DNA of 52,856 bases, the filler included, from Catajapyx aquilonaris (lineage: Eukaryota): the NCBI GenBank assembly GCA_000934665.2. It is 2 parts of 2 records of this genome, joined end to end, with 100 filler letters (N's around TTAATTAATTAA, not from the genome) between each part and the next. Parts side by side here need not be neighbours in the genome. Positions count along the whole stretch, not along the records: positions 1 to 26,393 come from KZ539308.1; 1 more part is not named here. One strand, given 5' to 3'. Each line of letters opens with the position of its first letter. The first letter of the stretch is position 1. Shown here piece after piece: positions 2,598 through 46,425 of the stretch. A program made the translations under genes and the position numbers. The notes under the pieces are model-generated. The model saw only the letters and a program-made list of their open reading frames with translations. It searched no databases and was not told the origin of the DNA.

Positions 2598-2720
2598 ACT
2601 GGAAAAAAGAGTTTTGTGTGTTTGAACTAGATTTTTTTTTAAACTACTTTCTGGGAAGGAACCCTGACACAAGTATCATACCAAACATTTCAGTGAAACA
2701 ATGGATCTTCGAAACTGACA

Positions 2721-3140
2721 TCTATAATATTAAAATCCTTGCGGAAGTTGGCTGAGCCCTCTGATTGGTCCGCCGCATATTGTTACCGCCACCTCCCCAT
2801 TGGCCAGCGTTCTACTCCTGCGCCATGGGGTGTAAACAATGTTGGGTTGCCGGGGAAACTGTCCATTCCTTTCTCTATATTGTTGCCCAGTTGGCACTAC
2901 TGTGAAGTTGCTTACAGAGTCAGGTCCCTTTATGGAATGACAGACCAGGCAGACATGTTCTCGCTTCTCACTAATCGGGCTGTTCGAAGACTGCTGGAGG
3001 GCTAATGTTACACCCTCCCCCAGTGATATGGTGCGCCGAATAGTTACCCCAGGCCGCAGGCCGAGAAAAGAGTGAGCGAAGCGAGTGATTTTCTAGGCCT
3101 GCACCCTAGGAAAATGCGAGCGGAGCGAGGGTTTTCCTAG
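2721..3140 (+). mobile_element. Non-autonomous Helitron, family A, copy 1
   Basis: Starts TC (TCTATAATATTAAAA), ends CTAG, lies between A and T with no TSD, has a subterminal GAGCGAAGCGAG-type motif; second copy at 27022-27243. Confidence 0.85.
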
Positions 3141-3433
3141 TTTTGCATTTAAAATGCTTGTAATCCATTATCGTCATTATATAAAAGTTCATGGATATAA
3201 GGCCCATGTATAGGTGTAGATAAAATTTTCTCTGTCGTGCAACAATTATTGTATTCCAATTAGGCAAAACATGGCATCATGTAACACCTATATTGGACAC
3301 AACCTATGGGAAAAAATTGTGAATAAAACTCTTAAGATTGGCTGAAATAATCCAGAACGAATGCAGCAGTCACAAACCTGGAACCTGCTCTCCTGAAGTT
3401 GGGTCCATCCACTCATTTGTATAACTTAATGTA

Positions 3434-4100
3434 CGAGGGCTGTACCAAATTGATTACAATTTTTTTTTTGCCGAAAATACAGGGACCATGCAGGTCGGCA
3501 AATAGGCACACACTATTGACAGAACCCTCCCGGAGCCGAATGCACAGGAGTCATGGGTGTGGCAACCTCTCCAGGCCCCCCAGGAACCACTTTTTGGAGG
3601 TGCGACACACCTACTATCGGACAACAACTGCTCACCGTCAGTCAGCAATTATCAACAATGTCCTTAAAATGGTTTTGGCGAAGGAATTTTTCCATTGATC
3701 TAGCTTTGAGTGCTTCCACACTCACTGTACTCCCCTGGCCTGGCCTTCAGTGACTTTGTTTGTTTGTTTGTTTGTTTGTTTGTTTGTTTGTAATACCCCG
3801 TGACCGTGGGCCACCATGCCCCCCGCCTCCAGTGACTTTCATCTGTTCTGATATATTTAAAAATTCTCTTCGCCGATGCCATTTCGAGGACATAGTTGAC
3901 TGTGAAGAGTTGTCCGGGTGTCAGGGCACCGCACCACCAAAAAGTGGTTCCTGGAGGGTCTGGAGAGGTTTACCAGTGCCAGTGCCAGTGAATTCTGCTC
4001 CGGGAGAATTCTATCTATAATGTGTGCCTATTTTGCGACCTGCATGGGCGTTGTGTCAGTGGAAAAAAACATATTGTAAAAAATTTTGGTACCGCCCTCG
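3434..4100. mobile_element. Mariner-type foldback MITE
   Basis: TA|CGAGGG...CCCTCG|TA termini with TA duplication; imperfect inverted arms of about 260 bp; (TTTG)n near the centre. Confidence 0.85.
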
Positions 4101-5935: not shown

Positions 5936-8900
5936 CTACGCTTGGTACGATTCCCCAGCTGCCACATCGTCTGTTAGACTCTGCATAATGCTAAAGATAT
6001 GTCCTTCCTGGAGATTCAGCGAGGTAGGGGTGTCCATCGGATCCACGTGGCGGCCTTCGCACATCAAGTGTATCAGGGAGTCATGCACCTCCTGGAAATA
6101 ATTTTCATCATGTAAAGAAACCATTAGAATTCTGCGCAGTGATCATCACACTAAATACTACAACATTATAATGTAGCATGCAGGTAAATCCAGTGTATGC
6201 AGAATATCTTGGTAAAAATATAGACTATTGATCAATCAGGAAATCTCTTATCTACCATACCATAGTTTAGTATGAAGGTTTGGACATCCTAATAAAAACG
6301 TAAGACACTGACCATGATTCACCCGAGCTACCATTCAGCACGAGTAGGATTCATCCAGTATTAACATATTTGTATTCACCCCCTTGGTTTAGCAATATTT
6401 TCAAAGGTCATTTTTAGCTCATTTATCATCATCATCATCACAACATTTCCCTATAAGGGATAGTCAGCGATGAAGGGAGACGCAAGCTAACCTAACATAT
6501 GAACTAAATTAAAACTTGTAAAAATAAACATATAAACAACCAGTCCACCCCCCACCCCTGCCCATCTCAGACGACAGACACAGAATATTAAATTAAAATA
6601 TTACACTCTGCAACACGGTAATTTGCCAATTCAAGTCCTCCGCCCTTCGCCACCAGCCACTACTCCGGACGCCCTGGCCACGCCAACGTGTATGGCACCA
6701 CCCTTGCACCTCATCGACCCCGCCAAGGACGTCCCCTCTACCGCCGGAGCGAAGGAAACCTTATCCTCAGACCTATTTACCTATTTACCCATTAATTAAC
6801 CTACGCCATTTACACCTATCCAATCAAACAACCTTAGCCTCAGCCACGTCCATGGTCCTATTGGTTAAGACACTGACCCACCTGGTCCAACAATGTCTTC
6901 CTAGGGTAGCTCATTTAGCTCAAGTAATAATTGCCCAATCTAGTAGCAATCACCTGTCCAAATTATCTTAAATGACATAAGTTCATCTTCACTAAAGTGT
7001 GAAAGAACTCTGCAGTAAATCCTAACAGCCTCCATAATTAGTTGCTCAGTTCAGAAGCATGTGCTTGACCAATTCTGAAAATAATTGAGGGCTTTCTCGG
7101 AAAAACCCCATATGTCATCAAATTTGAAAAAAATTAGTTAAGGGTAGTATTACATACTTTCGGAAGCCCTCCATGCATTGCTTCTCTCCAATTTCTGAAA
7201 AAATTTCTGTTGTTGAAGATATTGAAGGGAAAAATCAGCCGCTTCCAACATTTTCCTACAAAACCCCACATGTCAAGTGTGATTTCCCGGAACAATCCCA
7301 CATGTCAGGGGTGACATGTGAGGTTTTTCATGGAATGATAGAATTAGATGGCTTCAGGAGTATCTGGGAAAACATAGTATGTCCCCAAGATGATCTAAGC
7401 ACTACCCCAGCATAATCCCTGCCAATGTCGTTGAGCCAATCATGAAACATATGGTAAGTCCTTCAAGGCTCTAGAGTCTCCCTACTCGTGGAGGAAAAAT
7501 TGACATATGTACATATTACCTTCCTGAAAAGCTTTCCGTCAGCCTCATGCACAAAATGTTATATGACGAAAATAAGCCACAACTTCATGTCATTTAGAAT
7601 GTTTACAGGAATATTTTCATTCAGAATTACACGAAAGTTTGGCATGCCTGGAAGAGACACATGAGACTATTCTGTATACAGGATTGCAGAGTGTGTCGAA
7701 GAAATTGAAAATTCCAAGCTCATGCAGGAAAAAGGAACTGCATCTTGCTAAAGCTGAAAATTTTATCAGTTGTCCAGTTCCTCTACAATCTACATGACGG
7801 TGCACTGCAATAACCCATGTGTATCCGATAAGAGGACTTATTTTACTCTCAAATGATCAGGAAATTGGTGTGATCAATGAATCTATGCATAAGAGGTGAT
7901 ATAATTATGTAGGCCTACATATTTCCATGAAAATAAGGTAGTTTTTGTGATAATTCTGGAAAAACCTCATATGTCACAAATTTCAAATTAAGATTATGAT
8001 CATTTTAAATAACATTGTAGTGTGTAATTTGCATAGTTGAATACAGATGTATGTCATCCACACTACAATAAAAAAACAGACTGGCTAAGGCAATTAGTAC
8101 GACCCATGGGCAGTTTTTTTGTTTCCTGAAAAATTGTTGTCCCTTGACATGTGGGTTTCTTCCAAGAAACCCCTAAATTGCAACTTGAAATAAGAGAAAA
8201 TTGGATATACTAACAGCACGGTTAGCATAAGCCTGGATCACTTTGCTGAACTTTGTGTTCCACTTCAGCTTGAGTTGAAATTCCATACCATCCTCCTCCC
8301 GTTCAATGTTTATGGCTAAATATCCGTCATCACGGTTATAGATAACCACATAGCCCTGCACATAGAAATGGAAGAAAGAACAATGTTAGCATCACCTGAT
8401 GGGAGGGGGTTGCTTGATGATTTTGGGAGTAATATTGGTAGCTGCACATATGCTTTTCACTTGTAACTATACATGGCAACGGGAAAAATGATTCACATTT
8501 TCTCAAATTTGCTGTGTCACAGATAGTGTTGTGTAGGCCAGAAAAACTGGCTTGGTTTTTGGGCTGTTCAGGTTTTTTGCAAGTCTCGTAATACAGTAAC
8601 AGGAAAGGTTGGTTGTTTTTTTTAATTTTAATAATACAAGACTGCATATATGAACTGTTTCGTTTTTAAACAGGATTGATTTTAACCGTTATAAACAGCA
8701 TGTCACTGTCTTATCTCTTTTTCATTTGCAACATCTAGGCATATATAATTGGAAATAGCATAGCATGTGTATGTGACAGGTGAAAACAGTTTTGTACTCT
8801 TCAAAGGGTCTAATGGTAACTGTTTTAACAATTATGTTGAGTATTTTTTTATTATTTATCATACCCCGTGCTAGAGCCTTTGGCTCTCTTAGGGGGGTGG

Positions 8901-9785
8901 ATTACCACCATTGGATGGGACCAGGGATAGGGAAGGAAGGAAGCGGCTGTGGCCTATTTTTACGGAAACTACCCCGGAATTGTCCTGGGGGGACCATGGG
9001 AAACTACAGAAAACCATGGTCAGGGTCGCCGGCCCCGGGATTCGAACCCAGGACCTCCCGATTAGCAGGCCGGCTCCTTATCCCCTACACCAACCTGCTT
9101 CGGTCCAATTATGTTGAGTAATTTTGATGGTAATTTTCAAAAAGTTGTTGTAATATTTGCCGGAATGCTACACTTGGTCTCTGCTGATCCTATTACTATC
9201 CTCACAAAACCTTTTCCATTACAATAAGTAGGCTCCCTTGTACTGTACATTTGGGGATGCCTAATGAGAGCAGAAATGATGGGGATTCATTGGGTGGAAT
9301 ATTCCCCTTTTTGTCAACAGTGACTTAGCAGTGAACTTTGCAGCCATCATTCCAAGACAAGTCTATTTTGGGCCATATTGGTTATGGGAAAGGTCAATGA
9401 CCTTTCATAGAAGGGTAAATGGAGGGTTCCTCTCACATCAGCCGTGTTTCTCGCCTTATTAGCAGAATGTTAGAGAGACCCGAGGTCCTCTCTAACACAC
9501 TGCTTCATAGCAGTAACTGTGCTTAGCAGTGAAACAAAAATTCCATAAATGCCACTGGAAATATATTGTGGGTGGAGCTTCTTAGCAATAGCTAGCAGCA
9601 TGTTAGCAGTAATAAGGCAATTTCTTGAACAGACAATGGTTCCAGAGATGAATTCTAGGATGACTATTGACTCTACAGTCTACATGTTTGTCCGATTCAT
9701 AAATTAACACACCCTGCATACTCACCATGGCTACTTCCTGGAAGTTGTTTCGAACCAGGAAGCACTCGTCCCTCAACTCGTCCAT
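5936..9785 (-). CDS. Divergent SUMO-like (ubiquitin-fold) protein, 118 aa, 3 exons (9785-9726, 8355-8215, 6091-5936), no C-terminal GG
   Basis: Three GT-AG phase-0 exons give MDELRDECFLVRNNFQEVAM|GYVVIYNRDDGYLAINIEREEDGMEFQLKLKWNTKFSKVIQAYANRA|EVHDSLIHLMCEGRHVDPMDTPTSLNLQEGHIFSIMQSLTDDVAAGESYQA*. By eye this follows the SUMO pattern (F.lK..T...K...AY..R / G..v...DTP..L...EG..I). Confidence 0.75.
6426..6906 (-). mobile_element. 5'-truncated RTE-like LINE 3' end
   Basis: Minus strand encodes a decayed RTE-type C-terminus (PRKTLLDQV...MDVAEAKVV*LDRCKWRRL); (GAT)n tail; 11-bp TSD TAGCTCATTTA (6415-6425, 6907-6917). Confidence 0.75.
7089..8173. mobile_element. PIF/Harbinger-like MITE
   Basis: Imperfect TIRs of about 28 bp (GGGCTTTCTCGGAAAAACCCCATATGTCA / TGACATGTGGGTTTCTTCCAAGAAACCCC), TGA/TAA flanks, internal repeats of the AAACCCCACATGTCA motif. 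Confidence 0.6.
8844..9105 (-). mobile_element. tRNA-derived SINE, family 1
   Basis: Homologous to 19540-19871; pol III box B on the minus strand; perfect 15-bp TSD CAATTATGTTGAGTA (8829-8843, 9106-9120). Confidence 0.9.
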
Positions 9786-11689
9786 TCTTGTTTACAGCGG
9801 TTTACAGGCTGTGCTCTCAAAGTATATGAGTGTGGTTGTTCAAAAACACCTTAACTACTACTCCGGAAAAAACCTATCTCTTCTTAGAACAAAAATTAAT
9901 ATTTGTTTCCAGAGGAACCTTGCAGATCCGATTGGAATTCTTTTCGGAACCAAAATTCCAGGGTTGCCAGGTCGGAAAATTGCAACATGCCATTGTTGAA
10001 ATAATTGTCCTTTGGCAAATGAATGAAGGATTGGCCGAATGCAATGAGAAGTTTTAAAAAGAGATTGAAAAGAAGGCTTCGGAGGTAATTGTGCAATAAC
10101 TAGCGGTGTTGCCACAATAGCGGGAATTTCAAAATGACAGTTTTTCCATAGCTGCAGAAATGAAGGGTTTTAACTTATGTCACTTTCCCTAAATGGGCTT
10201 CACTGGGATTTCTATTACTTCAAGACAGGTGCAGCATGCATGTAAAAAAATTAAATCTACTTGAAGACGCAGTCAAAAATGGGAACTTGGAGTTTGCCGC
10301 ATTTTACAAGTTGACCTCTGCCCCCCTCAAAATGTGATCACAGGGTCATTTTGAGCAGGTAACTTTAGGTGCGACTCTCATCCCTTGGGGTGGGCTACCA
10401 ATGCACCGAATTTCAAGAAAATCGGTGAGTGGCACTTGGAATATAAAGTGTCTCTTGTTAGTGCAGATGACAATTTTGTAGTGCAATTTGCACTTTTGTA
10501 TCCGAGTATTTCGACTGCTGGAATCAATATATGGGCATACCACCTGAGCTTAGCATGGAGAAGTACAGTATTTTAAATAAATGCAGATGGAAGCATGATT
10601 TTTCGGAAAACCTCATACATTGGTAAGCCCTCTGAAAGGTGTCTTGAACCTGCCAGATTCGCTCGTTTACCAGTGTGCATATTCTTGTAATATGGCCGAT
10701 GGAGAGAGAGACAGTGACACTTTTTGAATATGTGACTTCAAATGTGCTTAAGATAGTGGGGAACGAAAAGAAAAATATCAACCAAGCCGTGGCCCATTTT
10801 AGTCTATAAATTATGTTGCATATACAGTACCAGTACATTGTAATGTGTGTTAAGATATATCTTAAATTAAAATTATTATTTTCCGATAATAATGACAAAA
10901 ATTCAATATTCAAAAATTTTAAATGCATATAACTCAAAAACCGTTTCCTCGAGAAATATTTAGCAAATACATGTGAGATCAGAGCAGAAAAAAATCGTTA
11001 AGAACCACCCTATAAACTCATTGGGATCTTGGAGATTTAAAAGATATCACTCGGCAAAAAATGTAAGTTATCTTTTAAATCTTTTAAATCTCCAAAATCC
11101 CACTCTAAAACACGCACCATTTGTCCTGTGACACATTCCAAAGGTTTATTTTTATACAGTTGACTCCGGAGATAACAGCCCTGGCTATAACAGACTCGAA
11201 ATAATTGGGGAACTAACTGTAAGTTCTTCCGCGCATTTAAACAAACACACATGATGTAAGTGGATTGTTTGAGCAACATCTTTATGCTGTAAATAAGCCA
11301 TGTTCCTCAGGGGTCCGAAATACATACAAATCCGACTTATGGACATTTTCAGAAACGTAACCCCATTCGTAGACTGGGGACTTCGCGTATTTTAATATGT
11401 TCACACAATCACACTATAAAATACAGTTTTACGCAAATGTGTGTGTGTGGGAGGGGTCACAGGTTACTTGGTTATTATAAAAGGGGGTCACGACTGGAGA
11501 AAGGTTGGGAACTACTGGGTTTTTATAACCACATACTTGGACAGGGGTAGTGGCCACAGACGTCAGACGTGAAGAATATGCCAGTTTATTTCATGTAAAA
11601 CATGGCAGGTTTGAGTTTCAAACTTGTACTTGAAAGAATAAGCTCTTTGTACCTAATAGTACATATAATTAAGGAAATATTGGTATTTA

Positions 11690-11995
11690 ATAATAATATT
11701 ATAATAATAATTCATACCCCGTTATCAGCTGGCGGCTCTTTAGCAGGGGAGTTCATCCCAATTTTGTTTTGACTGGAACTCTTTGCTTTCATTTACTTTG
11801 CTTTTTGGGATAGGATAGGGACGGAAGGACGAAGCGGCTGTGGAATATTATTTAGGGAGCAATCCCGGAATTCTCCTGGGGGGACCGTGGGAAACCACAG
11901 AAAGCCACGGTTAGGATAGCCGGCCCCGGGACTCGAACCCAGGACCCCCCGTTTAGCAGTCGAACACCTTATCTACGCCACCAAACTGCTTTGGT
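11690..11995 (-). mobile_element. tRNA-derived SINE, family 1 (older copy)
   Basis: Same body (GAAGCGGCTGTGG...CCCGGAATT.TCCTGGGGGGACC...TCGAACCCAGGACC), (ATT)n tail, degraded TSD. Confidence 0.85.
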
Positions 11996-12067
11996 GAAAA
12001 TATCGATATTTATTGTACTGCTTACCTACATTTACCAGGCGCCATGCACATGATGCTTCACTTAATG

Positions 12068-18094: not shown

Positions 18095-19814
18095 CCAGGG
18101 GAAAAACTTCCTACGCTGAAGCCATTGTTGGCAGAGATGATGGAAGATGGCTTTTGCACTATCAGTGCAGGAGATGTAACGTTCAATGTAGCAGATGTCC
18201 TGAATAATGATATTTCTGATGTGAGCACCAGGCCAAGAGGGGGAGCTAGGTTGGCTATTGACCAGCATGTTACCAACAGACCCGGACGTTTGGCTGACAA
18301 TACTGGTCAAAATGACCAGGCAGTGGAATCGTTCAAGTGCCCCTACTGCAAAGTCACGTGCATAACTTCCTCCGACTTGGATGACCACAAGACTAGCACA
18401 GTACACCTTGTGAACTGCATGCTGTTTTGGTACCGGACTCGCCGCCAGCAATTGATGTTAGATAAGCATGGCGTTAAGATACGTTCTGGTCACCTAGAGT
18501 CAATTGAATCAGGTGTCGTGGACCTTGTGTGCTCAGCAGGCACCACTCAAGACAATGAGATGATGCTGAATGTCTTCAATACTGGGCGCAAGCCAATCAC
18601 CGTGGACCGTGCAGAATGGGTAGTGAAGCCACCAGGCATGTTCCTTGCATTGTCTGACAAACATGACATGATCCGATGCAAATCTAAGGTCAAGATCATG
18701 CCTGACAACCAGTATGCGATCAAAGTAACATACAGGGCAGTTAACAGAGTGACACAGATAGCAGTGCTGGGCTTTCAGATGAAGGCAGACGACACAGCCC
18801 TACCTTTTCATATAGTGAGGGAGATGGTGTTCCATGTGTCTGGGAATTTGGATGACATTACATTTCTCCAACCCTCACGCCCATATAAGCCACCACCCAG
18901 GGTTGCGCTTGAGCATCCCTCACGAGACATCGTCCCAGCACCTAAACCAATAAGGTTAGCACCAATTCCAGTGTTTTTATTATGTTGTGCTTGTCTCACC
19001 TGGAAAATGGGAAATCTCTTCACCATTTATTTGAACCCTTTCAAGGACTTCTCTATGATCTCATTCACTCCATTTATAGAAGAGTAGAAAGCTAGGGTGG
19101 AATTTTCATCCAACTGATAGTTACTGCTAACTTGGCAATAGGGCCTACCAGTGTTGGCCATGGTGCTCCTAACTGTCCTAAGTTAGTGTCAGTAACTAGA
19201 GCAGTAGGACGAAACTCCCCCCCCCCCNTATATTTTTCTGAACATATACGGAGTACATGGCTCTGTGATTATCTGGAAAGTGCAACATTTGGACTGATAA
19301 ATTAGAGAGGCATGCTGATCTCAGTGAGATAGCTTAATTTTGATTTCTCCTGGGGAATAGAGATTAATTTTGCCTTTCAAGTAAATTACATTTCAAGGAG
19401 TTTAATCCGACCTCAGTGTGTTGACAGCCGGTGTGACCAAAAATTTTCACAGAAGTAAAGGATATGCCGGTATTTGACAGAAATGGTTCATGGATGGGAA
19501 TGGCTGTCAGTGACACTAAATGCAAATTTTGTATAAGCACCGAAGCAGGTTGGCATAGTGGATAAGGCGTCCGACTGCTAATCGGGAGGTCCTGGGTTCG
19601 AATCCCGGGGCCGGCAACTCTGACCGTGGTTTTCTGTGGTTTCCCACGGTCCTTCCAGGAAAATTCCGGAGTTGCTTCCGTAATTTACAGGCCACAGCCG
19701 CTTCCTTCCGTCCCTATCCCATCCCAAAAAGTGCAGTAAAATGAAAGCAAAGAGTTCCAGGCAAAAGAAAACTTCCCCCCTAAAGAGCCGAAAAAGGCTG
19801 ATAACGGGGTATGA

Positions 19815-19874
<60 letters not shown>

Positions 19875-21218
19875 TTTGTATAAGCAACTCTCTAACACTA
19901 GTTTTTATTCTGTCTGTACTCTGTACATCATTTTCATGGAGTAAGAAATGTATCAAGTTCAATGTGTAAATCATCATTCACTGATAGAATATATTGTACG
20001 AATTGATTGCAGGGTTTTGAATAAGGGATATCAAACTCTGAAATTTCAGGGGGTGACCCAGGAGCTGAATATTTTGTCTTTCTAAATCTTGGTAGATTTA
20101 ACTCTCCAATCAAAAATAGGGCACTACATGAGACATCATTATCGTCAATTTTTACATGCCATTTTCATTTGGGTATTGTACCGTATATCTTGTCTGGTCG
20201 TTCTGGGCAGTGGGAGCTCCACTCCTTTCTTCCCACCAGCCAATCTATCAATATCATGCACACTTGCATACATGATTGAATGTTGGGAAGCCATAGGTGA
20301 GGCTTCCATTGTAATCAGGGAGCACGTTCCTTTTGCAGAAAATAAATAAGTTCTTTTATTTTCCAGTTCAGGATGTGCGGCACTGTATGAACTGGCGTTG
20401 AGTTTCTACAACACTCCTCCCCAGCTGGTAAAGATAATCAACCATGGCATGAATCCCTTTAAGGGCATGACATCTGAGGTTCAGCAGTACTTGGCTCCTA
20501 TTCAGTAAGTAATGTGAAGATAAGTTAGATGGCTGCAGGGGTGCTTGATAAAGCAATTTTTCTCCCAGGAGTGCCTTTTCTGAGGGCCTGAAGCCAGACA
20601 ACTACCAGTTGTACTTCTCAACACTGCTATATATTGAGGAGCAGCAGATGATGGTCGACATTCGCCAGTTTGATATGTGGGAGGTTGAAATTAAAAGGCA
20701 GAGAGGACATTACATATTGGAGGTACTGTGGAGTTTAAATAAAGTTAAACATCAAGGAATTACAAGGGCAGTATGCCCCTAGCTGTGCATTTGGGAAATG
20801 TATACAGGTTAACAATCACTTATTCAAAACTGAAAATTGATAAGCTCAGAATACCAAAAATAATAATTATTTTTGGTATTCTGAGCTTATCAATTTTCAG
20901 TTATGAAATGCCACCATGAAATTATTTCATGGTGGCATTTCATTCCAGGCAACATGATATTGATGTACCTCTTCTCTGTGATCCTCAATCTAAGAGTAAT
21001 GCGCCAAGTCTGCATTGTAGATGTATGTGTACAGGCATTGAAAGTTAGGAGGTTGACCTATTCTTGGAATATATGAGGCTATATGGCATACTGTAACACC
21101 ATTCTGAAATCCAAGAAATTCTAAATTCTGAAAGGTGCCTGGTTTTGAGGGTTTTGGATAATAGATTGTGAACTTGTATGATGCAATTGGCTGCCTCAGA
21201 AGCCAATGTTGTTGTTGC

Positions 21219-21259
<41 letters not shown>

Positions 21260-24200
21260 TGCATTACCCCATTGGGATTTACCACATCCTTTAGTGGGGG
21301 GGNGGGGGGTGGATTACCACCATCGGAAATTGGAGCCATATAAGAAGATCTTAATTAATTACTCCAGGGTAGGTAGGAGGGGATGTGCAAAGTGCATGTG
21401 CGCTAGTGGTCATTTTGTGAACTCCCCCGGGTAAGATTAGTTTTTAGGAAATTTCCACCCGAAATGAAGCCAGAGATAGAAGCCAATGTTTTTAAGACAG
21501 TATAATTATGCTAATTGCATGCAAATGGAAGGAGCAATGCTGCATTTTGAGATGACACCTGCACAGCTGTCATGGGGGCACAATGTGACTGGCTTAAGTT
21601 GGTAAGCACTTGAGAAATATCCTTGGCTACCAAGCAGTATGGGTGATCTCAGTGCCCACTAATCCTGTGACATGTGAGCAGAACATTAGCTGCTCAAGTG
21701 TATTTCCCAACCAGAACTCAGAGATTGAGCAGTTCTGCTCGAGCTAGCCTTTAATCACATTGTAAATGAAAATTGTGTTAATATAATTTATTTCAATAGG
21801 TCTTGGGCTTAGCTGAGAACCGACCTTCAGTTCTCCGTGGAGACTGCATCTATGTTCGTGAGCGCAATAAGACCCAGGTTGGTGCAAAGGAGTATGAGGG
21901 CCGTGTGATTGAAACCAGGGAAGTGGAGCTAGTGGTCGATTTCCATCAAAAGTAAGTAGTTACAGGCCATTGAAAAATTATAAAGTTTGTTTTTGGTACC
22001 AAAAGTTACTCATGAAGTAATATTTGATTTGTTTGGTTTTGCTTACTTCACATTCAGCCAGAATTGTAGGATACTGTCCACCAGCATGTGTGTGAGACCA
22101 CAACTGATTTATTTTAAACCTCAGTGCTTGAAAATTTGAAGACATTGTTGTTGTAGTGTAGCTGCTGTAGCTTACAACTAGGGGAGGAGAGCTTTCCCCA
22201 GGGAAGTTGTGACAGGTTCATACTTATAGCAGTCATCCTATTTTACATTGCAACTTATCTTATTCTGGAAAACACAACCTTCACTTTTTTAACATTAAAA
22301 ATGAATTTTTCTTCTTGTTGCATGCTGCATACTTCTTGTTACATGCTGCCTCCCCAACCATTTGTTACATTTCTGCTTACTGGGAAAAGGCTAGAAAGTT
22401 GATATTCTGTAAGCATTTTTTCTTAGTTCATACTGTATACTTGGGGAAAAAGAACTTTTTTCATTCTTAGCACACTTTGAAAATTAACTGTGCAGTATGA
22501 GAAGCTTTACGTATGTTATATGAAATGCATTCTTAACTTTTACAGTTTCTCACAGATCTACATGGACAAGATGAAGTTCAATGTGCGGTTTTCGTTCAAC
22601 CGATACCCCCTACGGATTATGCATCATGCTCTCGAGATATCAGCTGATCTTGGCCTGACCCGGGTACTATTTCCGGCAGCCATTGATGCAGGACGCCTTC
22701 CCATTGCATTATGGGGACCTTCCCATTTGATTCTTTTCAACCGTTTGTTGGAACACAATACGGCGCAGATGCAGGCCATCCGTAGCATAGTGTCTAGAAC
22801 TTCTCGTCCAGCTCCATACCTGGTGTTTGGGCCTCCAGGAACTGGGAAGACTGTCACGCTTGTGGAAGCCATAAAGCAAGTATGGAAGAGGTCCCCTGGT
22901 GCGCACATTCTGGCGTGTACACCATCCAATGCAACAGCTGATTTGCTAGCAGCATTGGTCTTGGAAATGGGCGGCATGGTGGTCTAACGGTTACGCCGTT
23001 GGCCAGCCAAGCGGGAGGCCGGGGTTCAAATCCCGTCCCCGTCACCTCTGCTTGGCCGGGTCTTTTTCCGCTTTTCACCCGACATGCCGGGGCAGAATTG
23101 CACTCCCTATCTGCCCGGGGCCAGTAGAAAAGGCCTGGTGTATTTTCATAAGTCAGAAATGACTAAAAATTTCAGCGCCCTCCCTAGGGAACCACCCCCT
23201 TCCCCCCTAAGAGAGCCCCTGGCTCTATCACGGGGTTAAAAAAAAAAAAAAAAAAAAAGCATTGGTCTTGGAACATGTGCCAAAGAGTCAAATTCTCCGC
23301 ATGCATGCACCATCTCGTCCGTGGATCCAGGTACTCAACATGAAATGTACTTCCATAGGTTGATTCATGCATGGCCCAGGCAACAAGTACCATTTTCCAT
23401 GATTTAAGTTATGTTTATCGCAAATTTTAATCAACAACACTTCATGAAGGGGAGGAATAGCAACCTGTGGTAATGCTAGGGAAATCTAATGTGTGTCATT
23501 ATGTGGTGTCTGTGAATGCAGTAGTCATTAGCCACTTGTATCACATCCATTGAAAAAAGCCATCCACCGTAGTATCATTTAAGTATGCATCCATTTATTG
23601 GCTGTTTATTGCTTGCTTGACCTACGTACGTGCGCCTGCTTGTTCCAGATTTTAAGTCTTAATACGTTACGGAATGGTCATGAATAGAAATAGCACACAA
23701 CTACTGGTGCCTGTGAATAATTACCCTTACATTGCATTTGGCAATATGTGAATTGGTCCAATGAAAACTTTCACAATCTGCTAGTTTTTGAGGGGAATGT
23801 CTTGCTATTAATCAGCACAATTTACCTGCAAATAACGTTACAGGTTCCAGAGAAGGTGAGGGCTGCCAGCAACAGGAAAGGACACGATTATTACTTCCCC
23901 GATAAGGAAACTATGATGAAATATCGTGTGGTGGTCACCACCTTGATGACAGCTGGGCGCATTGCCGGGATGAACTTCCCTCGTGACCACTTCACTCATG
24001 TGTTCGTGGATGAGGGTGGCCAGGCTCTTGAGCCAGAATTGTTGGTGGCTGTTGCTGGCATACTCAATGTCGCTCACGGTGGCCAGTTGGTCATTGCTGG
24101 TGACCCTCGTCAGCTTGGACCCATTCTGAGGTCACCGATCGTGGTGAACCGCGGCCTTGATAAGTCATATCTAGAGCGTCTGATGACTACCTCAGAGCTG

Positions 24201-25728
24201 TATGCACGGAAGGAAGTTGGGTATGACTTGCGTGTCATGACCAAACTTGTACAAAACTTCCGGTCTCACCCAGACATCTTGCATGTGCCAAACCTTCTGT
24301 TTTATGAATGCGAGCTAGAAGCTTGTGGTGATATGGCAGTGTCACAGTCTCTATGCGGCTGGGACATGCTCCCTACTAAAGGTTTCCCGATCATATTTCA
24401 TAATGTGATTGGTACAGATCTGCGTGAGGGTTCAAGGCCTAGCTTTTTCAACATGGAGGAGGTGATCCAAGTAGTGGAGTATGTCCAGAGAGTATTGGAA
24501 TACAGGATGTGCAAGGTGAAACCAGCAGAGATTGGGATTATCTCACCATACCGACAACAGGTGAAGAAGATTCGCACATTACTGAATAGAAAGCTGAAGA
24601 AAGAGGGAGGGAACGAGGTAACAGTGGGGACCACAGAGGAATTCCAGGGTCAAGAGAGGAAGGTAGTGATCATCTCCACTGTCAGGAGCAGCCCTGAGTT
24701 CCTGATTCAAGACACAAAGCATGCTCTCGGGTTCCTAAGCAATCCAAAGGCAAGTGTCAATGAGTAGTTCGTTAAGGCCCATTAGTTAGTAAATACAGTG
24801 AAACCTTTGAATCGCTGAATCACACAGGACCCGAAACCATTTTCATAATGGACTCGGGGTCTGCTCCGGACAGGTTTCACTGGACCATTCTACAAGGATT
24901 TAGCATTTAGTAAGGAGCACGGATTGTTTACTCTAGCAATCAGTTTAAACCCATTTATGCCTAAGGTTGAAATTTTTGAATATATTGTGTATGAAATTCA
25001 TATAGGTTACCCAGAAATATTCAAAGGAAGTGGGATATAAATTACTCGCACGTGACTGCCATTCATGCGGTACAGCAGTTTAATATAAAAGTCTCCGCCA
25101 GATCTGGGTTTTGGCGCTGGTGCCCCCCCCACAGGAATCGACTGCTGCTAGCCACCTGAATCCTAATCTGCAAACGTCCTCCGAGGAAAGAACAGTTTGC
25201 ATTGGTTCCGAAGGCGGCCAACCCAAAGTGACCCCCCAGTAGATTTCTGTGGTGGGGGGGGGGGGGGGGGGGGGGGTTTTTGAAGGATTTAAAAANGCGC
25301 AGCCGCCAAATTCCCCGCCTGGCGGAGACTTTCATATTAAACTACCGTCAACACGGGGTTAGGCTGGAAGAGACAGGGGACTGGTATTGACAGATGGTCC
25401 TTTGGAATCTTTTGCATATATGTAATAAATCAGTTTTTTTCTCTTCCATTAGCGAATGAATGTGGCTCTTACTCGAAGCAAGGCCCTTCTGATTGTGGTG
25501 GGCAATGCCAACATCCTTGGCCGTGACCCCAACTGGCGAGCATTTCTGGAGCATGTGCAGCGGAAGGGAGGATACCTTGGGGAACCTTACCAGGGGCCCA
25601 GAGCAGGCGATGTGTTGGACAACTCAGGGCAGGACTGGAACGACATGCTGAGTAAATTTGAGACCCTGGGACTGGGTCCAAGTGACAGGGAGCTCATACA
25701 AGGCCCTCAATGGAACATGCAACTTTAA
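18095..25728 (+). CDS. MOV10: MOV10-like (UPF1-family SF1) RNA helicase; exons 18095-18954, 20367-20504, 20569-20722, 21800-21951, 22546-23330 (interrupted by a SINE), 23844-24749, 25453-25728; candidate first coding exon 17091-17156
   Basis: MOV10 hallmarks NY...F.TLL.IEE.QM..DIR.FDM, GLAENRPSVLRGD, F.FNRYPLR, APYLVFGPPGTGKT, CTPSNATAD, FVDEGGQALEPE, AGDPRQLGP, NFRSHP, IISPYRQQV, EEFQGQE, NPK|RMNVALTR; intron phases are consistent. As assembled, the SINE introduces a stop at 22985-22987. Confidence 0.9.
19540..19871 (+). mobile_element. tRNA-derived SINE, family 1, full length (MOV10 intron)
   Basis: Box A TGGCATAGTGG, box B GGTTCGAATCC, Arg/Ser-like tRNA head, long (ATT)n tail, perfect 15-bp TSD AATTTTGTATAAGCA (19525-19539, 19872-19886). 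Confidence 0.93.
20805..21176. mobile_element. Degenerate pogo/Tigger-like MITE containing two perfect palindromes
   Basis: TA|CAGGTTAACAATC...GATTGTGAACTTG|TA termini. Confidence 0.55.
21211..21477 (-). mobile_element. 5'-truncated retroposon 3' end with (CAA)n tail
   Basis: 13-bp TSD AGAAGCCAATGTT (21198-21210, 21478-21490); shares GGGGTGGATTACCACCAT with SINE family 1 but has a different upstream body. Confidence 0.7.
22967..23257 (+). mobile_element. tRNA-Gly-derived SINE, family 2, full length, inserted in a MOV10 coding exon
   Basis: Head resembles tRNA-Gly(GCC) (GCATGGTGGT...GCCAAGCGGGAGGCCGGGGTTCAAATCCC); about 20-nt poly(A); perfect 16-bp TSD AGCATTGGTCTTGGAA (22951-22966, 23258-23273); second copy at 28453. 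Confidence 0.93.
25077..25343. mobile_element. MITE in the last MOV10 intron
   Basis: 25-bp near-perfect TIRs AGTTTAATATAAAAGTCTCCGCCAG / CTGGCGGAGACTTTCATATTAAACT; superfamily not determined. Confidence 0.6.
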
Positions 25729-26393: not shown

Positions 26394-26493
26394 NNNNNNN
26401 NNNNNNNNNNNNNNNNNNNNNNNNNNNNNNNNNNNNNTTAATTAATTAANNNNNNNNNNNNNNNNNNNNNNNNNNNNNNNNNNNNNNNNNNNN
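26394..26493. other. Artificial scaffold gap spacer
   Basis: Exactly 44 N + TTAATTAATTAA (stops in all six frames) + 44 N = 100 bp. Confidence 0.92.
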
Positions 26494-27243: not shown

Positions 27244-27941
27244 TAAAATATTTAAAAATTTAACAAATAAATCAAACAATTTATTTGGCTTATGTCTTAT
27301 CAAAAGGCGCCACTGTGGCCAACCCTTCAACTACATTGAAAAAAAAAACCACTTGTGCTTGCAGCAATGTTGCCAATCCAGTGTTGTTATTGACAAGGGC
27401 TGGTTGCACGCGTACTACCGACTGTTCGCACCCACGTCCCCAAATGGCAAGCCGTTGTTTGTGCTACAAGCCATGATGCGTGAGTGTATGTTGAAAATGG
27501 GTGTTCATTGGTCGGCGGCACATGTGGGCAGTGAAAGGCAGCGAAATGATTCCCGCCGGCGCCTATTATTAACTTGCCAAAAACCTGATCTCCCATTTGA
27601 AAATCACGGCCCACTTGACGGACTAATAGCCACATCACTCACTTGGTACCCTCAGAGCTTGTTTCTTGCATCATATAAGGTGAGCTGCTATACCAGGTTA
27701 GGTGTGGGGGATAATAAGGAGTGGCTGTTGATGATGGTGGTGGCCATGCGGTTATGTAGAAGCAGATGGTACGACGATGGGGGAGGGTAAACGAAGTGTC
27801 GTACGAGTGATGGATCGGAGGTTGTTCCGGGGGCAAGCAGGGATTAGGGTGATGTCACAGGGGAAATCCGGGGATATAAGTCAGTTATCCGGAAAAGCTG
27901 ATGAAGAAGCATAAAACTAGTTGTAGGACAAAATTAGTCCG

Positions 27942-28439
27942 TTCAGGCCACCACACGACTATATACAAACAGGTAGCTTCGATTCAAGCCATCACACGAC
28001 TGTATACAAACAGGTAGCCTCGATTCAGGCCATCGCACGACTGTATACAAACAGGTAGCCTCGATTCAAGCCATCACACGACTGTATACGAGCAGGTAGC
28101 CTCAATTCAGCCCATCGCACGACTGTATACAAACAGGTAGCCTCGATTCAAGCAATCGCACGACTGTATACAAACAGGTAGCCTCGATTCAGGCCATCGC
28201 ACGACTGTGTACAAACAGCTAGGTAGCTTCTATTCAGGCCATCGCACGTCTGTGTACAAACAGGTAGCTTCGATTCAAGCCATCACACGACTGTATACAA
28301 ACAGGTAGCTTCGATTCAAGCCATCACACGACTGTGTACAAACAGGTAGCTTCGATTCAAGCTATCGCACGACTGTATACAAACAGGTAGCTTCGATTCA
28401 GGCCATCGAACGATTGAATACAGTCAAGTAGCCTCGATT
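27942..28439. repeat. 41-bp minisatellite, about 12 copies
   Basis: Head-to-tail unit TTCARGCCATCRCACGACTGTRTACAAACAGGTAGCYTCGA with no spacers. Confidence 0.92.
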
Positions 28440-28452
28440 AGGGGAGGCAAGG

Positions 28453-28628
28453 CAGCATTGGTGGTCTAGTGGTTACGCCACTGGCCAGCCAAGCGGGAGG
28501 CTGGGGTTCAAATCCCGTCCCCGTCACCTATATGCTGCTTGGCCGGGTCTTTTTCCGCTTTTCACCCGACATGCCGGGGCAGAATTGCACTCCCTACTCT
28601 GTCCAGGGCCAGGAGAAAAGGCCTGGTG
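28453..28628 (+). mobile_element. tRNA-Gly-derived SINE, family 2, 3'-truncated copy
   Basis: High identity to 22974-23139; tail and poly(A) absent. Confidence 0.85.
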
Positions 28629-35182: not shown

Positions 35183-38100
35183 ATGGAGGACCAGGCGTGC
35201 CCCCGATGCAAGACCACAAAGTACCGCAATCCCAATCTGGTCTTGATGGTCAACGTCTGCGGCCACCAACTGTGCTCCAGCTGCGTTGAGCTCCTCTTCA
35301 TCAGGGGTGGGTCAGGCCAAATGACATGAAGGGTGATCCGAACAAAGAAGGAACAGGGCTTTAGTTGATTTCCAATTAGTAGATGTGCAGGATAAAATAA
35401 ATGTCGGCCACCGATTTTTCTGGCTGATGCGATGATCATCACATCGATTAGAAATCAGATTAACCCTTAACTACGTAGGTGGAGCCTGAGAGGCTCCAAC
35501 CACTATTTAAACGCATGTAACTTTCTAATTAAATGTTTTTTGCCCCTGTCCTTCCGTGACTTTGTCACAAAAACCTTCTTAAGCATGAAAAGAAGAAAAA
35601 AAAATTTTTTTAATCGCCGTCCTTTGGCTGGAAAAAATTTGTAACGAGGAACAGGTCTCACATTGGAGCCGCTCAGGCTCCACCTACGTAGTAAAGGGTG
35701 CTGTCGTTTTCCCTATCTCTGTGGAGAGCGTCTGAATAGGGAAAACGACAGCACCCTTTACTACGTAGGTGGAGCCTGAGCGGCTCCAAGGTGGGACCTG
35801 TTCCTCGTTACAAATTTTTTTCTGTTGAAATATGCCTACTCAGCGTGTGATTTTCACGTTTTCGGAAGCCTAATTATCTAAACTGCACTTTCTGAATGTG
35901 AAAAGTTCAATATAACAATTGAGCTGATAAGCAGAGATTTAAATATACTGTTGGAGCCTCTCAGGCTCCACCTACCTAGTTAAAGGTGTTTTGGCCACCT
36001 ACATAGTTAAAAGTTAATGAGCTACATTTTTGTAAGCAGGCTGTACAGCTTTTGACTATACCTTGGGTATGTCTTACTAGTATGGTAAATGGCAGTCAGC
36101 GTATTTATTGGCCCCAAAGTCGAAAATGTATAGGGGATCAATGTTGAGGGAGCAACTGTTTGACCGTGTCAATGATGATGGAGATTTACATGCCACTGAC
36201 ACAAATGCGTTCATTCATCCAACATCTTTTCTGTGGGGATACCCTATCTTCAATTTAGTTTGCCCAGATTTTCAGTCTGCATGGGATGAACCAGCCCCCG
36301 GACACTTCCCCTACAATCTTATCTTATCGCCTGCCCGGGCGTTTTGCATGAGGTGCTCACCTGAGAGCGCCATGAGACCTTTCACGGAGCTATTATGTGG
36401 CGACCCTACCGGACTACGCTGAACTTTATAGGTACAAAAGGGAAGCGCTACATGTGGGCCCAACATGGCCGCCGGCGACCATGTTGGGTCCCCCAATGTA
36501 GCGCTTCCCTTTTGTACCTATAAAGTTCAGCGTAGTCCGGTAGGGTCGCCACATAATAGCTCCGTGAAAGGTCTCATAGCGTTCTCAGGTGAGCACCTCA
36601 TGCAAAACTTCCCCGGTAAGTGGGAATGTCTAGACCTAAGTATTCTAAGACCATGGGATGAACTGATGGGATCGGATGCTGTCGCCTCCTTGCCCAAGTC
36701 AATCAATATCAGGATCACATCCTGATACTTAGACTACCACTGCATGTACGGGAGTGTAGCAATGTGCTGAATTCTCCACAGAAAATCTGTTGGGTGGGTG
36801 GATGCAAGGGGGTAACCACTCCCCAAAAAAGGGTACACCAGTTCCTGGAACCAGGTGGTTTCAAGCCGGTTCCAGAGGGACCTTGTACACCGTTTCCACA
36901 AAGTGGTTACTCCCTCAGGTGGATGTGTTTCTCTCAGGGACACGCAAATCTCCACCATTAGCTACATCGTCAGTGCCCACTTCCTCGACGTTTCTCCCCC
37001 CTACATTTTTGACGAGTTTTTGATTAAGTAATGCATTGCAACTAGACAACATGCTTGTAAGAAACACCCTGTACATACAAAGTTAGCAATCGATTATTAT
37101 ATGAAGCTCCCTTGACTTTCCTACACCCACCTCATGCACAGTGTGACGAAGTAATGTTCTTCTAATTTGATATTTAATATTTGTAAGGTTCTGGATCATG
37201 CCCGGAATGCAACATTCCCCTGCGCCGCCAGAATTACCGGGTGCAGCTTCTAGAGGATGGGAAGGTTGAGCGGGAGGTGGACATCCGAAGGCAGGTCCTG
37301 AAGGCGTATAATAGGCAAGAGAGGGACTTTGACAACCTTGAAGACTACAATGACTACCTGGAAGAGATTGAGGAGACCATTCAGAGGATGTTGAAGAACC
37401 AGGACATGACCCAGGTGTTTATCAGTATTTGATCAGATTAATTTGTGGGCCAAGAGCCCCAGGGGTCCGTGGATCTGTCCACAATATTCCTCATCTTTTG
37501 GTGGTCACTAGACCATGTATAGAAAACATTTGGTTTACTTCTAGTTTCACAAGGAGATGGAACAGTACAAAAGGGAACACAAAGATGCCATTCAGAGGAA
37601 TAAAGCTCGGTATGTAACTACTTGGGTTACTAGTGAAACCAAAACTAATGTTAAATTGCATGAACAGACCCAGTGAGGCTGAATTGGAGCTCGAAGAGAT
37701 CCTAGAGCAGGAGCGCCTTATTGCGAAGAACAGGACAGAGGAGCGGGAGCGGGAGACGAAGGAGGAAGCGCTGAGGAAGATACGGTCCAAAGAGGCCCTC
37801 CTTGATGACCTCATGTTCTCAGAGGGTGATGCCAAGTCAATAGTCCAGCAGCACGCATCTGATGCACAGAAAGTCCAGCAGCAGTCCCAGCCCACAACCT
37901 CTAAATTGACCACAACTCGTTTCTCCTCTGGGATTGGCATACATTCTGAGAGGGGGTCCTTCCTGCCTGTGCCAAAGAAGGTGGAGGAATCAGGAGAAAT
38001 CTTTCGGTACTGTTATTTGTCCTGAAATTAGGATGTCCTGGAGAATTTCTCTTTCAAAACATTGCATTGTTAATGGATCTCCATGCATCAGTAATACACC

Positions 38101-38346: not shown

Positions 38347-39246
38347 GTACAGCTTTCATGCATGGAGCGAAATGTCGGAGGTAATAAAACAGATATTCTT
38401 ACACACTTTGTTCTTTATTTCTTATCCTGAATTGTGGCATAATATTTGAAAATGTGAGTTATGGAGTGGTAAACACATGGTTCCAACACGTAATCAAACA
38501 GGGCGGGAAGGGCCAGGTACCGACTAGATTTGCCATTATGCGCCCGCCTCCTCCATTGCATGGCCAATCACACGCTGGATGTATTTCTGCTGCTCGATGG
38601 TTTTTGTTGCTATGCCAAAGTTTTCTGTAATAGTAAATATCTGATGGTATCAATGAGAGGTTTTTCCCCTCTGAGATGGGGGATGCTGCTGGATAGGATG
38701 GAGGAGGAGGTGTGGACAAGGAGGTGGGACAGGGGCGGGGAGGGGGAAGAGGGGGGCATAAGACGAGTCAAATAACACTTGCAGCTGTCGAGCTGGCTGA
38801 GCTAGGGCGTTGTCTACATGGCTGACTCTCAACGTAGCAGGCTGTTGAAGAGCTTCACTCGCTTCGTGATGGAGTCCACCGCAGCACGTGATGCCACTCG
38901 GCAGGTAGGGACTGATGTGTGCTTGTTGGAGGTCACTGTAGTGGGGTAGATGCTGAAAGGTGTGTGCCTCAAAGTATTTGTGCTTGAATTGTGTGGGAAT
39001 GGCTAATTTATTATTGTATTTTCCTCCTATGTGTGCCAATAGAACCTACCTCGCAGACACAACCTGATGCAGATTTTCGCCAGAGTCGGTGAGCAGAATG
39101 CTGCCAGCAGGTTACAGCGCATTATGACGATCTTCTTGTTGACACTTATCTTCATGGGCTTGTATATGCTCTTCCAAGGCATCAAGGTAGGTCATAAGAC
39201 GTGCAGGAGTCATCCCCGCCATTCCCTGCCCTTTCCTGGGATTGTA

Positions 39247-39406
39247 CAGTATTGGTCATATATCGAGGCAACCGCCAGCGACATTTTCCGAAGCGGCCGA
39301 AGAAGGAATCTTGCTCGCCCGGCTTGTAGGATGCTTAACTTCGATTCCTTCTTCTGCTGCTTCGGAAAATGTAGCTGGCAGTTGCCTCGATTTATGACCA
39401 ATACTG
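39247..39406. mobile_element. Tc1/mariner-type hairpin MITE
   Basis: TA|CAGTATTGGTCATA...TATGACCAATACTG|TA with inverted arms of about 60 bp. Confidence 0.85.
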
Positions 39407-40030
39407 TACTACCGGCACAGAAATGGTCCGGACACTTTTGGGGGTATGCTGACCATTGACAAGTGTCCGGACCTTTTCCATCCCAATAGTACTTGTGGCT
39501 GATTGGTACATTAAGACTAGCATGAGCCTAACTCGGATGCACTGATTAGCTTCTGTGCGAAATGGTGGCAACATGCCTGGATTGAGCAAAAATCTGACTG
39601 TAACAGAATATTTGATCAGTCCTGGCAGAGGATTTTCAAGTTATTTTTGTTGTAAATGATGGAAACCAGCTCAAACCAGAAAAAATTTCTTGGAGCCAGG
39701 TGCCGCAGTATTACGCAACATGCCATTGTTCTAGTACATCTGATCCTCCTTCCTGCTGAGTCAGCAGCATTCATGATGGCACCAGTGTGGCATGCCGGGA
39801 ATGTAGGGAACATTATGGAATTCTTATGAAGGGGTTGTGGAGAATCCAGGCTTCGTGCAGAAGCAATGCAGCTCTCACATTCCTGATCATGAATGTCCGA
39901 GATATAATGAAAGTCACCTTGGAACCTGAGATAACATGTTGCCACTTGGACAGCTGTTACCATGGTTGACATTTTGCAACACCGGAAGGAGTCCCATTAA
40001 TTTCTATTAATACTCTTTGACCTGTTTCAG

Positions 40031-41607
40031 ATCATGTTGTCACTTGATGAGTGCGAGGAAAAAATCAACCCCCGACTTTATGAATCTGACCCCAGATGCC
40101 GTCTGCTGGACAATTGCCCAGGTTTGTGTTGGTTCATGACTTGCAAATAAGAGAAGGTTTTTCGGATACCTTAATTTTCATTCAGATGCCATCTTAAACT
40201 TTTCCACCGAGCTCATCGACCCTGATACAGCAATGCTTGAGTTTGTTCTTGCACCACATGTTGACAAGAAGGGCACCTACTTGAACATTGAAATGAAGAC
40301 GGTTTTGGATGAGGTTTCATTCGTGGGAAGTATACTGGACAAGATTTGCAATGGAACCAACTGTCATTTTGCTGTTACTCAGGAGAACATCATGCAGCCT
40401 TGCTTGACAGTAAATTTTACTATAAACCTGATCTATGCAGATGGTTCCTCAAGCAACTCGATCAGCAACCAAGTGAGAATGATGGAAGCAGGTTAGTATG
40501 TTACAACAATGTTCACATTTGTGTGCTGCTCTGACAATTTTGTTTTTGTTTTCAGTTCCAGGTGCTCCTGTGAACTTGGAGATGGAGGTTTTGTCCACTC
40601 ACCTGGTGGTCTCGTGTGAATTACCTGAGAGTAACTGGTCATGCATCACTAGCTATAAAACATCATGCCAACCCAGCCACAGCCATGAGGTATTAAGACA
40701 CTACAGCCCAGTAGAATTTGGAGAGAAGAAAACCGAGTGGACCATCCATGAAGGAATAGAACCATGTTCCACTTACATCATCACAGTGGCAGGTGTGACC
40801 CGTAGTGGACATTACGGTGATTCTGCAAAGTCTGTGCAAATAACCACCGAAGAAGCTGGTTAGTTTATTCATCTTTTAAACGTAACAGACTGATCTTGCA
40901 ATAGTTGTGACGTACGTAATTATGATGCATTTTCTTTTTCGGTACATCATCTTTACGTAATTACCTAGCACCATGGTGTTATGTGTAATTTTTGTGCATT
41001 TTCTACTTAACTTAACTTAGTTCCTGGTCCTGTCCAAGATGTGAAGATAACTCTGGAAGAAGAACAGCCTTTCTCAGCCTATATCGAGTGGAATGTTCCA
41101 ACAACAGGCTACCAGTGCGTTTTGCACTACGCTATTGTGGTACTTAGTGATGATAAGGAGCTCTCACATGACCACACAGGCAATCTCAACTTCGTTGCAA
41201 CAAGCTTAAAAGGTGGTCAACTCTACCAGGTGAAGGTAGCTGCAGTTTCGCCGACACATGCAGTGAGCCCATACACTGTCAAGAATTTTACCACCTTTGA
41301 TCAACCAGGGCATTCTTCTTCACGCAACAGTAAGTATCTTACAATATACAGTATACGTTTTTAAAACCGAAGCATGGGTCGATGCAACATCAGAGTAATG
41401 TCACTCACTGAAAAATTATCAGTTAATGACATTACTCTGATGTTGTTATGTTGTACAGTGTAACACACCTTCACTGGATTTTTCTCTTTTGCAGGAGCTT
41501 CTGGGACTCCTCAGAATATGAACCCAAATTCTGTGACCCCAATTTTTTTGCTGATGTCTCTCTTGATGATGGCATCAATTTACCTGCCTGAATTATGCAA
41601 ATTGTAA
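40031..41607 (+). CDS. Fibronectin type III repeat protein, probably GPI- or membrane-anchored; exons about 40031-40121, 40186-40491, 40555-40858, 41021-41329, 41495-41607; 5' end unresolved
   Basis: Phase-1 exons of about 100 aa beginning VPGAPVNL and VPGPVQDV with FN3 W/Y pattern (EW..P...Y, L.PC..Y.I.V.G, L..G..Y.VKV.A); hydrophobic C-terminus IFLLMSLLMMASIYL. Confidence 0.72.
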
Positions 41608-46245: not shown

Positions 46246-46425
46246 GGTGTCAACAGCTAGTCAACAGACTACCAGAAATCAAAAGGCAATATAATTTTAT
46301 CAATATAAATTTATTTCCTTTAAAAGGCATGTTGTAAATCACTTCTTTTACACTACAAACAATAAAATTTTCCTGATATCAAAATGGTAAAGCGCCTGTC
46401 GATCAGTCTTCTTTTTTTACCTTTC

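Follow-up and report, generated by a model that had tools for sequence, protein, structure and literature searches.

MOV10 is a UPF1-like SF1 helicase related to plant SDE3 and fly Armitage, and in the available text of PMC3475670 the human protein restricts L1, Alu and SVA elements, an activity lost on mutation of most of its helicase motifs. The same text counts disease-causing L1, Alu and SVA insertions and reports that no positive selection on MOV10 was found in primates. A review agrees, in the part available, with this picture of MOV10 restriction (PMC8535693). In mouse, Mov10 knockout is embryonic lethal and heterozygotes contain ~2x brain L1 DNA, as given for one study in the available text of PMC5492891. 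MOV10 occurs in oysters, termites and lampreys (PMC8161014, available text), and RNAi genes are frequently duplicated in flies (PMC6505081, available text). A literature search, with subscription papers and supplements outside its scope, returned no described case of a retrotransposon inserted into MOV10 and, within the article text available, no data on MOV10 function in the lineage studied here. The anti-LINE/SINE role invoked in an earlier, sequence-only reading of this locus is documented for mammalian cells and mice (available text of PMC3475670 and PMC5492891) but is not extended here to this organism.

Exonic SINE alleles are a well-known class, and the case described below is an ordinary event with an appealing target. 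Mouse germ-line retrotransposon insertions are reportedly the subject of a review. The window, a stretch of 52,856 nt (52.9 kb) from Catajapyx aquilonaris assembly GCA_000934665.2 in which two parts are joined, contains a MOV10 gene with a SINE in a coding exon. As in other exonic SINE and retrotransposon alleles, a short retroposon of full length, ending in poly(A) and flanked by a TSD, introduces a premature stop while an intact version occurs in the species. Unlike the disease and mouse insertion alleles, it has an invertebrate host, a tRNA-headed element and a target related to a restriction factor. One broken and one working copy are predicted here, as in the heterozygous Mov10 gene-trap mouse; that animal is engineered and mammalian with measured dosage effects, whereas the window allele is known from sequence alone. 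The locus is best explained, with reasonable though not strong confidence, as a heterozygous SINE allele, probably a null, whose MOV10 haplotype is divergent and whose intact counterpart is transcribed.

The gene model was obtained by aligning 12 homologues on the window and combining the alignments with splice sites, resulting in seven coding exons from 18137 to 25728 on the + strand. Helicase motifs were located with sequence patterns. The resulting features were as follows.

18137-18954, + strand: exon A, counted from the earliest ATG in frame; carries a C2H2 zinc finger and the MOV-10 Ig-like domain
20367-20504, + strand: exon B, without a tblastn hit; positioned from the reading frame and its AG/GT splice borders
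20569-20722, + strand: exon C, coding
21800-21951, + strand: exon D, joined to 22546 in RNA contig 25
22546-22966, + strand: exon E, 5′ part, before the SINE
22757, + strand: Q-motif-like NxxQ, in exon E
22829-22852, + strand: Walker A, in exon E
22922-22942, + strand: motif Ia, in exon E
23274-23330, + strand: exon E, 3′ part; joined to the next exon in RNA contig 26 from a GT donor at 23331
23844-24749, + strand: exon F, with motifs Ib-V and, at 24750, a GC donor
25453-25728, + strand: last coding exon, motif VI and TAA

All UPF1-like core motifs I-VI were located in the model, and Pfam domains were MOV-10 Ig-like, AAA_11 and AAA_12 (PF21633, PF13086, PF13087). The start is uncertain, as there is an acceptor-like site at 18094 and RNA contig 25 reaches ~266 nt farther upstream than the model. 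The intron following exon F is of the GC-AG type (donor AAG/GCAAGT), the match of RNA contig 26 ending at 24749. At 26394-26493, 0.7 kb past the MOV10 stop, the sequence is broken (two 44-N runs with a 12-nt palindromic spacer), and the 3′ flank is discontinuous.

Identity of the gene as a MOV10-like helicase, proposed earlier, was borne out. Besides the MOV-10 Ig-like domain and the AAA_11/AAA_12 core, which agree with this identity, the exon F protein has 50-57% identity to animal MOV10, and the named best matches were mostly MOV10. In a 40-row exon F tree the window protein was placed inside a 28-row MOV10 clade with support 97/94, MOV10L1 being separate with support 100/100. Position within the MOV10 clade was unresolved in this tree, whose rows include no labelled Armitage. 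Unlike known MOV10 proteins, it is without a close database relative: protein database searches returned no same-species or closely related sequence, with maxima of 57% (exon F) and 64% (a short exon E match). A search with the N-terminal protein gave no match among 902 candidates, and no chain named MOV10 was present among solved-structure matches (14 and 18 sequences). No second MOV10 copy was found within the window.

Other features of the window were recorded by Pfam as follows.

2073-2675, - strand: alanyl-tRNA synthetase
37618-38022, + strand: MAT1
40483-41361, + strand: fibronectin type III domains
41897-42769, - strand: CNH domain
51682-52854, - strand: ligand-gated ion channel

At 45886-46143 (+ strand) a 27-nt repeat encodes a Thr/Pro-rich mucin-like stretch. 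A tandem duplication of ~1.9-2.1 kb, with blocks 85-94% identical, extends over 46270-50220 and holds long acidic open frames at 46690-47670 and 48570-49628 (- strand) that gave no Pfam match. Near-perfect long inverted repeats with 42-118-nt arms at 20823-20907, 35463-36608, 39244-39409 and 51088-51466 are probably MITEs or foldback elements.

The insertion in exon E had been described earlier as a 291-bp SINE with poly(A) and a perfect 16-bp TSD, and the sequence agrees with this description.

22951-22966, + strand: TSD, left copy, exact repeat
22967-23257, + strand (gene sense): SINE, with tRNA-like head, body of a many-copy family, two-tier tail hairpin and poly(A)
22980-22990, + strand: SINE box A, promoter pattern
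22985-22987, + strand: premature TAA, in frame, within the SINE head
23023-23033, + strand: SINE box B, promoter pattern
23203-23235, + strand: two-tier hairpin of the SINE tail
23238-23257, + strand: poly(A) of the SINE, A20
23258-23273, + strand: TSD, right copy, exact repeat

Both TSD copies are identical (22951-22966 = 23258-23273, 16/16 nt), and the 16-mer occurs twice in the whole window and no more; such an exact repeat pair at 100-500 nt spacing is expected by chance ~0.005 times per window. As its first base is an A that adjoins the poly(A), TSD length is 15 or 16 nt. Between the copies lie 291 nt (22967-23257), and the insert together with one TSD amounts to 307 nt, which is not divisible by 3. 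Homologues align onward across the SINE/exon junction. The hallmarks of retroposition are thus present in the poly(A), the TSD and an empty site with a single TSD copy.

The in-frame TAA was found where it had been claimed, six codons into the insert and ~1250 nt (1252) upstream of the last exon junction, and the model ends after 567 aa. The stop comes after Walker A and motif Ia but before motifs Ib-VI, and the later helicase motifs are removed as proposed. Following removal of the SINE and one TSD, a 973-aa ORF without internal stop was restored, the junction residues corresponding to those given earlier. The mRNA of the SINE allele is likely a target of nonsense-mediated decay. Precise splicing-out of the 307 nt was rejected, as 0/17 registers are GT-AG, GC-AG or AT-AC. 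Reading the insert as an introner or new intron was similarly set aside, given these 0/17 precise registers and the presence of only weak cryptic pairs.

In the tRNA-like head, box A at 22980 and box B at 23023, identified with consensus patterns, constitute a Pol III internal promoter. The earlier assignment to tRNA-Gly is in line with GCC at the anticodon position when the head is aligned to a tRNA-Ser-like SINE head of the window. The label is nevertheless weak: no tRNA was called by ARAGORN on the insert's head, the Rfam tRNA model gave 14.3 bits (E 4.5) against a gathering score of 29, and the predicted fold contained no cloverleaf. tRNA-derived SINEs may carry a LINE-type 3′ stem-loop. 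The insert resembles such elements in having box A and box B, a body, a two-tier 3′ hairpin and a 15-16-nt TSD, and this hairpin is common to the insert and to the SINEs at 8844-9105 and 19540-19871. A second family, with a tRNA-Ser-like head, was found at three places.

8829-9120, - strand: SINE of the tRNA-Ser-like family
~11650-12000, - strand: SINE of the tRNA-Ser-like family
19525-19886, + strand: SINE of the tRNA-Ser-like family, head called by ARAGORN at 19545-19616

The tail of the 9-kb copy is nearly the same as that of the MOV10 insert, though head and body differ; by sequence comparison, SINE families appear to exchange tails. The insert is 91% like a 178-nt copy at 28451-28628, which represents the 5′ two thirds of the family, has another 3′ end and no TSD found, and directly follows a 41-nt tandem array (27878-28521). 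The family is abundant, body depth being ~1e5 compared with ~30 per MOV10 type, where depth does not equal copy number. More than 1100 contigs per DNA run matched a 3.9-kb stretch with the SINE, and the insert's tail variant is minor (depth ~1400-4000 vs ~1e5 for the body). The insertion had also been called very recent, a dating that the sequence does not establish: the 16/16 TSD match bounds divergence only to < ~17%, and the two window SINEs at ~8.8-9.1 kb and ~19.5-19.9 kb each have perfect 15-nt TSDs as well. A TSD was absent in 2/4 other SINE copies examined.

Five public runs contain the MOV10 stretch, four from sample S1 and one (X5) from sample S2. Contigs of X1, X2 and X4 (S1) and of X5 (S2), not raw reads, were compared with 21330-25240. 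X5 was treated as RNA since its contigs skip two introns, although no listed run is recorded as RNA. S1 probably supplied the DNA of the assembly itself, and so is not independent; it may also be a pool of animals. In X5 contig 26, record positions 62-249 correspond to 22772-22959 and positions 311-1219 to 23841-24749; between them is a 61-nt piece whose end lies at 23327. This contig is without exactly 307 nt, equal to the SINE plus one TSD, the joint being placed from coordinates, and also skips a GT..AG intron. The shortfall of 307 nt is not splicing, because no register has spliceosomal ends. Splicing-out of the SINE had been suggested as something to look for in RNA junctions; the X5 contig is of the empty type and holds no spliced SINE.

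In 3/3 S1 runs compared, contigs of equal depth (42/42, 42.2/42.2 and 40.8/40.8) depart from the window letters to the left of the SINE, at 22919, and to its right, at 23309/23315. From coordinates and depths, these appear to be one contig across an empty site. Window letters over 23309/23315 were found on another contig in 2/3 runs, at depths of 13.7 and 19.9; at 22919 the empty-type contig was the only one seen, and run X4 is without a window-type contig at 23309. An empty-site version, the search for which the earlier reading had recommended, thus exists in RNA (X5) and, as it appears, in DNA (S1). Its suggestion of a possible polymorphism is supported to this extent, the empty copy being a probable allele but possibly a duplicate. 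A joint on opposite strands at 22965-23031 in X4 was set aside as probably derived from other SINE copies. X5 was not used as evidence of decay, since contigs drop rare variants and X5 may be from a non-carrier; it has no window-type contig at 22611-22771, and depth was accounted for by single contigs in five bins. The two X5 contigs break at 22611-22710, with depth 8.4 upstream vs 17.7 downstream, a twofold step that may reflect bias towards the 3′ end or another divergent variant upstream.

S1 DNA contains two sequence types, the window type and a second one. Among the 24 S1 pieces listed, 14 equal the window exactly (from all three runs) and 7 belong to the second type; the remaining 3 are exon F paths in which the types merge, and these vary between runs with 1, 7 and 9 differences. 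By sequence, the second S1 type corresponds to the X5 RNA type: 15 of the 17 listed exonic differences (from 40 of 89 rows) are common to X5 and at least one S1 run, and 2 were seen in X5 only. The depth ratio of window to other type was 0.81 (95% CI 0.66-0.99, nine pairs, all within 21330-25240), with p 0.04 vs 1:1 and p 0.0007 vs 1:2. Exon F depth was 49, compared with 51-54 expected for two collapsed copies. No internal variation of the window type was found in the 14 window-type pieces listed from three runs, as a single chromosome would show.

Divergence between the types is uneven. Four pieces upstream of 23.6 kb differ at 17/320, 12/190, 9/188 and 20/244 nt, which pooled is 58/942 against 8/909 nt for exon F (p 1e-10). 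For introns alone the contrast is 20/244 vs at least 2/228 nt, and divergence was 5.3%, 6.3% and 8.2% in three mostly intronic pieces. One segment is particularly divergent.

22611-22771, + strand: segment <90% alike between window and empty copy, from contig comparison

Within it, 9/18 nt differ at 22754-22771 (P ~2e-5 at 10% background), a patch that reads HNTAQM in the window and SNPEQL in the RNA contig (a loose end, translated by hand) and retains the invariant N and Q. Divergence steps from 5-8% in 21500-23600 (locally 5-30%) to ~1% in 23700-24980, which takes in exon F and the beginning of the following intron. Such a mosaic would agree with an old haplotype block, with a conversion tract or with a duplicate homogenised in part, and a block of 5-30% divergence beside one of ~1% is the more unusual side result of the analysis.

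Nine of the 17 listed exonic differences are synonymous and 8 change a residue; six more replacements were read by hand from a loose end and a joint. R778 (24435-24437) of the window copy is Ser in the RNA copy, and Ser occurs in 106/106 close and 79/100 distant homologues. A494 is Glu in the RNA copy, with Glu in 95/106 close homologues and Ala in 4/145 distant ones. T546 is Ala in the RNA copy and in 99/106 close homologues; as a lesion it was weakened by Thr in 23/143 distant relatives. Among the listed differences, three departures from conserved columns are on the window copy and none on the RNA copy (one-sided p 0.125, by hand), an excess on the SINE copy that is suggestive only. The earlier statement that no other lesion is present therefore stands for stops and frameshifts, of which no others were found, but not for R778, A494 and T546, which depart from conserved residues. 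These changes weaken the description of the insertion as very recent and of the gene as otherwise intact: the SINE copy either had time to decay or was divergent already.

One chromosome per type is favoured by the depth ratio, by the exon F depth of two merged copies and by the uniformity of the window type, and alleles were preferred to a duplicate on these grounds. Divergence that is high for alleles (5-8%, <90% at ~22624-22772, and the 9/18 patch) would also fit a duplicate with gene conversion. Under such an explanation, which we hold to be unlikely, the window would carry a recent MOV10 duplicate, part-homogenised by conversion and either killed by the SINE or hit while decaying, the working copy lying elsewhere. 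The contrast between upstream pieces and exon F, which extends to the introns, argues for it, as do the invariant N and Q in the dense patch, which a tract from a functional relative would keep, and the location of the extra missense changes at conserved sites on the window copy; RNAi-pathway genes are, moreover, often duplicated (PMC6505081, available text). A diploid duplicate should, however, show heterozygous sites of its own, and the listed window-type pieces contain none; the empty type itself varies between S1 and X5, at 2/17 listed exonic sites, and the one MOV10 copy of the window is the broken one. If a duplicate were nevertheless involved, the locus would represent ordinary birth-and-death in an RNA-silencing gene family.

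Three further explanations were weighed. Cryptic splicing could rescue the SINE allele and yield a near full-length helicase, as an incipient intron: there are 20 donor/acceptor pairs that stay in frame without a stop, of which 22979 (donor) to 23285 (acceptor) keeps the exact length and swaps four residues while others add 6-25 residues, and a strong pyrimidine run precedes TAAG at 23211 in the SINE tail. Usable donors are poor, however, with 2-5 of 9 consensus matches and none with AG before the cut, and neither of the two GT donors within the SINE is in frame with the strong acceptor at 23211; the RNA contig, being of the empty type, retains 23267-23285 and carries other letters. Rescue is for these reasons very improbable. 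Misjoining of a repeat into the exon during assembly would be in keeping with the lack of SINE-exon junction contigs among the listed pieces, with 23228-23266 lying outside the contig comparison, and with the missing window-type contigs at 22919 and, in X4, 23309. An exact TSD, a poly(A) and both element ends are not products of misjoining, the window-letter contigs over 23309/23315 look as if leading into the SINE tail, and run X1 contains 0.89 of sampled words, so that an artefact is hardly credible. Finally, the allele could be a natural mutator, common in the population, whose half dose of MOV10 raises LINE/SINE activity and whose haplotype is split by balancing selection. Heterozygous mice with ~2x L1 DNA in brain (PMC5492891, available text), the need for intact helicase motifs in restriction of L1, Alu and SVA (PMC3475670, available text) and the abundance of the SINE family point this way, whereas the second sample shows only the empty type; we consider a mutator of this kind highly improbable. 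The broader proposition, a SINE-null MOV10 allele at appreciable frequency on an old diverged haplotype with higher LINE/SINE activity in carriers, seems improbable also.

For the preferred explanation, a heterozygous SINE allele with an intact counterpart, the following course is proposed. A Pol III-type tRNA-headed SINE would have been copied into exon E by the machinery of a partner LINE through target-primed reverse transcription, a process that leaves a poly(A) and a 15-16-nt TSD, and would have hit the MOV10 copy of one chromosome. With a stop six codons into the insert and a frame shift, this allele is predicted to encode no more than 567 aa, with most of the helicase core missing, its mRNA presumably going to nonsense-mediated decay. 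The other chromosome would carry the intact empty allele, of the type transcribed in the second sample. Near the insertion the haplotypes are taken to have diverged deeply, by old polymorphism or through a conversion tract, and the broken one would bear the further missense changes. Most likely, then, the insertion is a recessive or mildly dosage-sensitive null, probably without a phenotype in carriers, of the kind captured by chance in draft genomes of outbred animals.

As exonic SINE alleles are well known and the SINE family is very abundant, a hit in a defence gene needs no special mechanism, and the broken MOV10 looks like an ordinary damaged allele and not like loss of a defence gene. 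The earlier reading had cautioned that an intact copy would remove the functional significance; an unbroken, transcribed version does exist, which cuts that significance to dosage at most. Should the allele be common with raised activity in carriers, a retrotransposon in a wild population would have put its own suppressor out of action; MOV10 dosage could then be studied as a natural experiment outside mammals, and MOV10 would offer a first example of variation that is balanced or driven by conversion. A common allele would in any case provide a PCR marker for relating MOV10 dosage to retrotransposition in an invertebrate, a question so far addressed in mammals only (available text of PMC3475670 and PMC5492891). 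For the species itself, the reference shows a broken MOV10 though an intact one is present and transcribed, and gene-loss calls made from the assembly would mislead.
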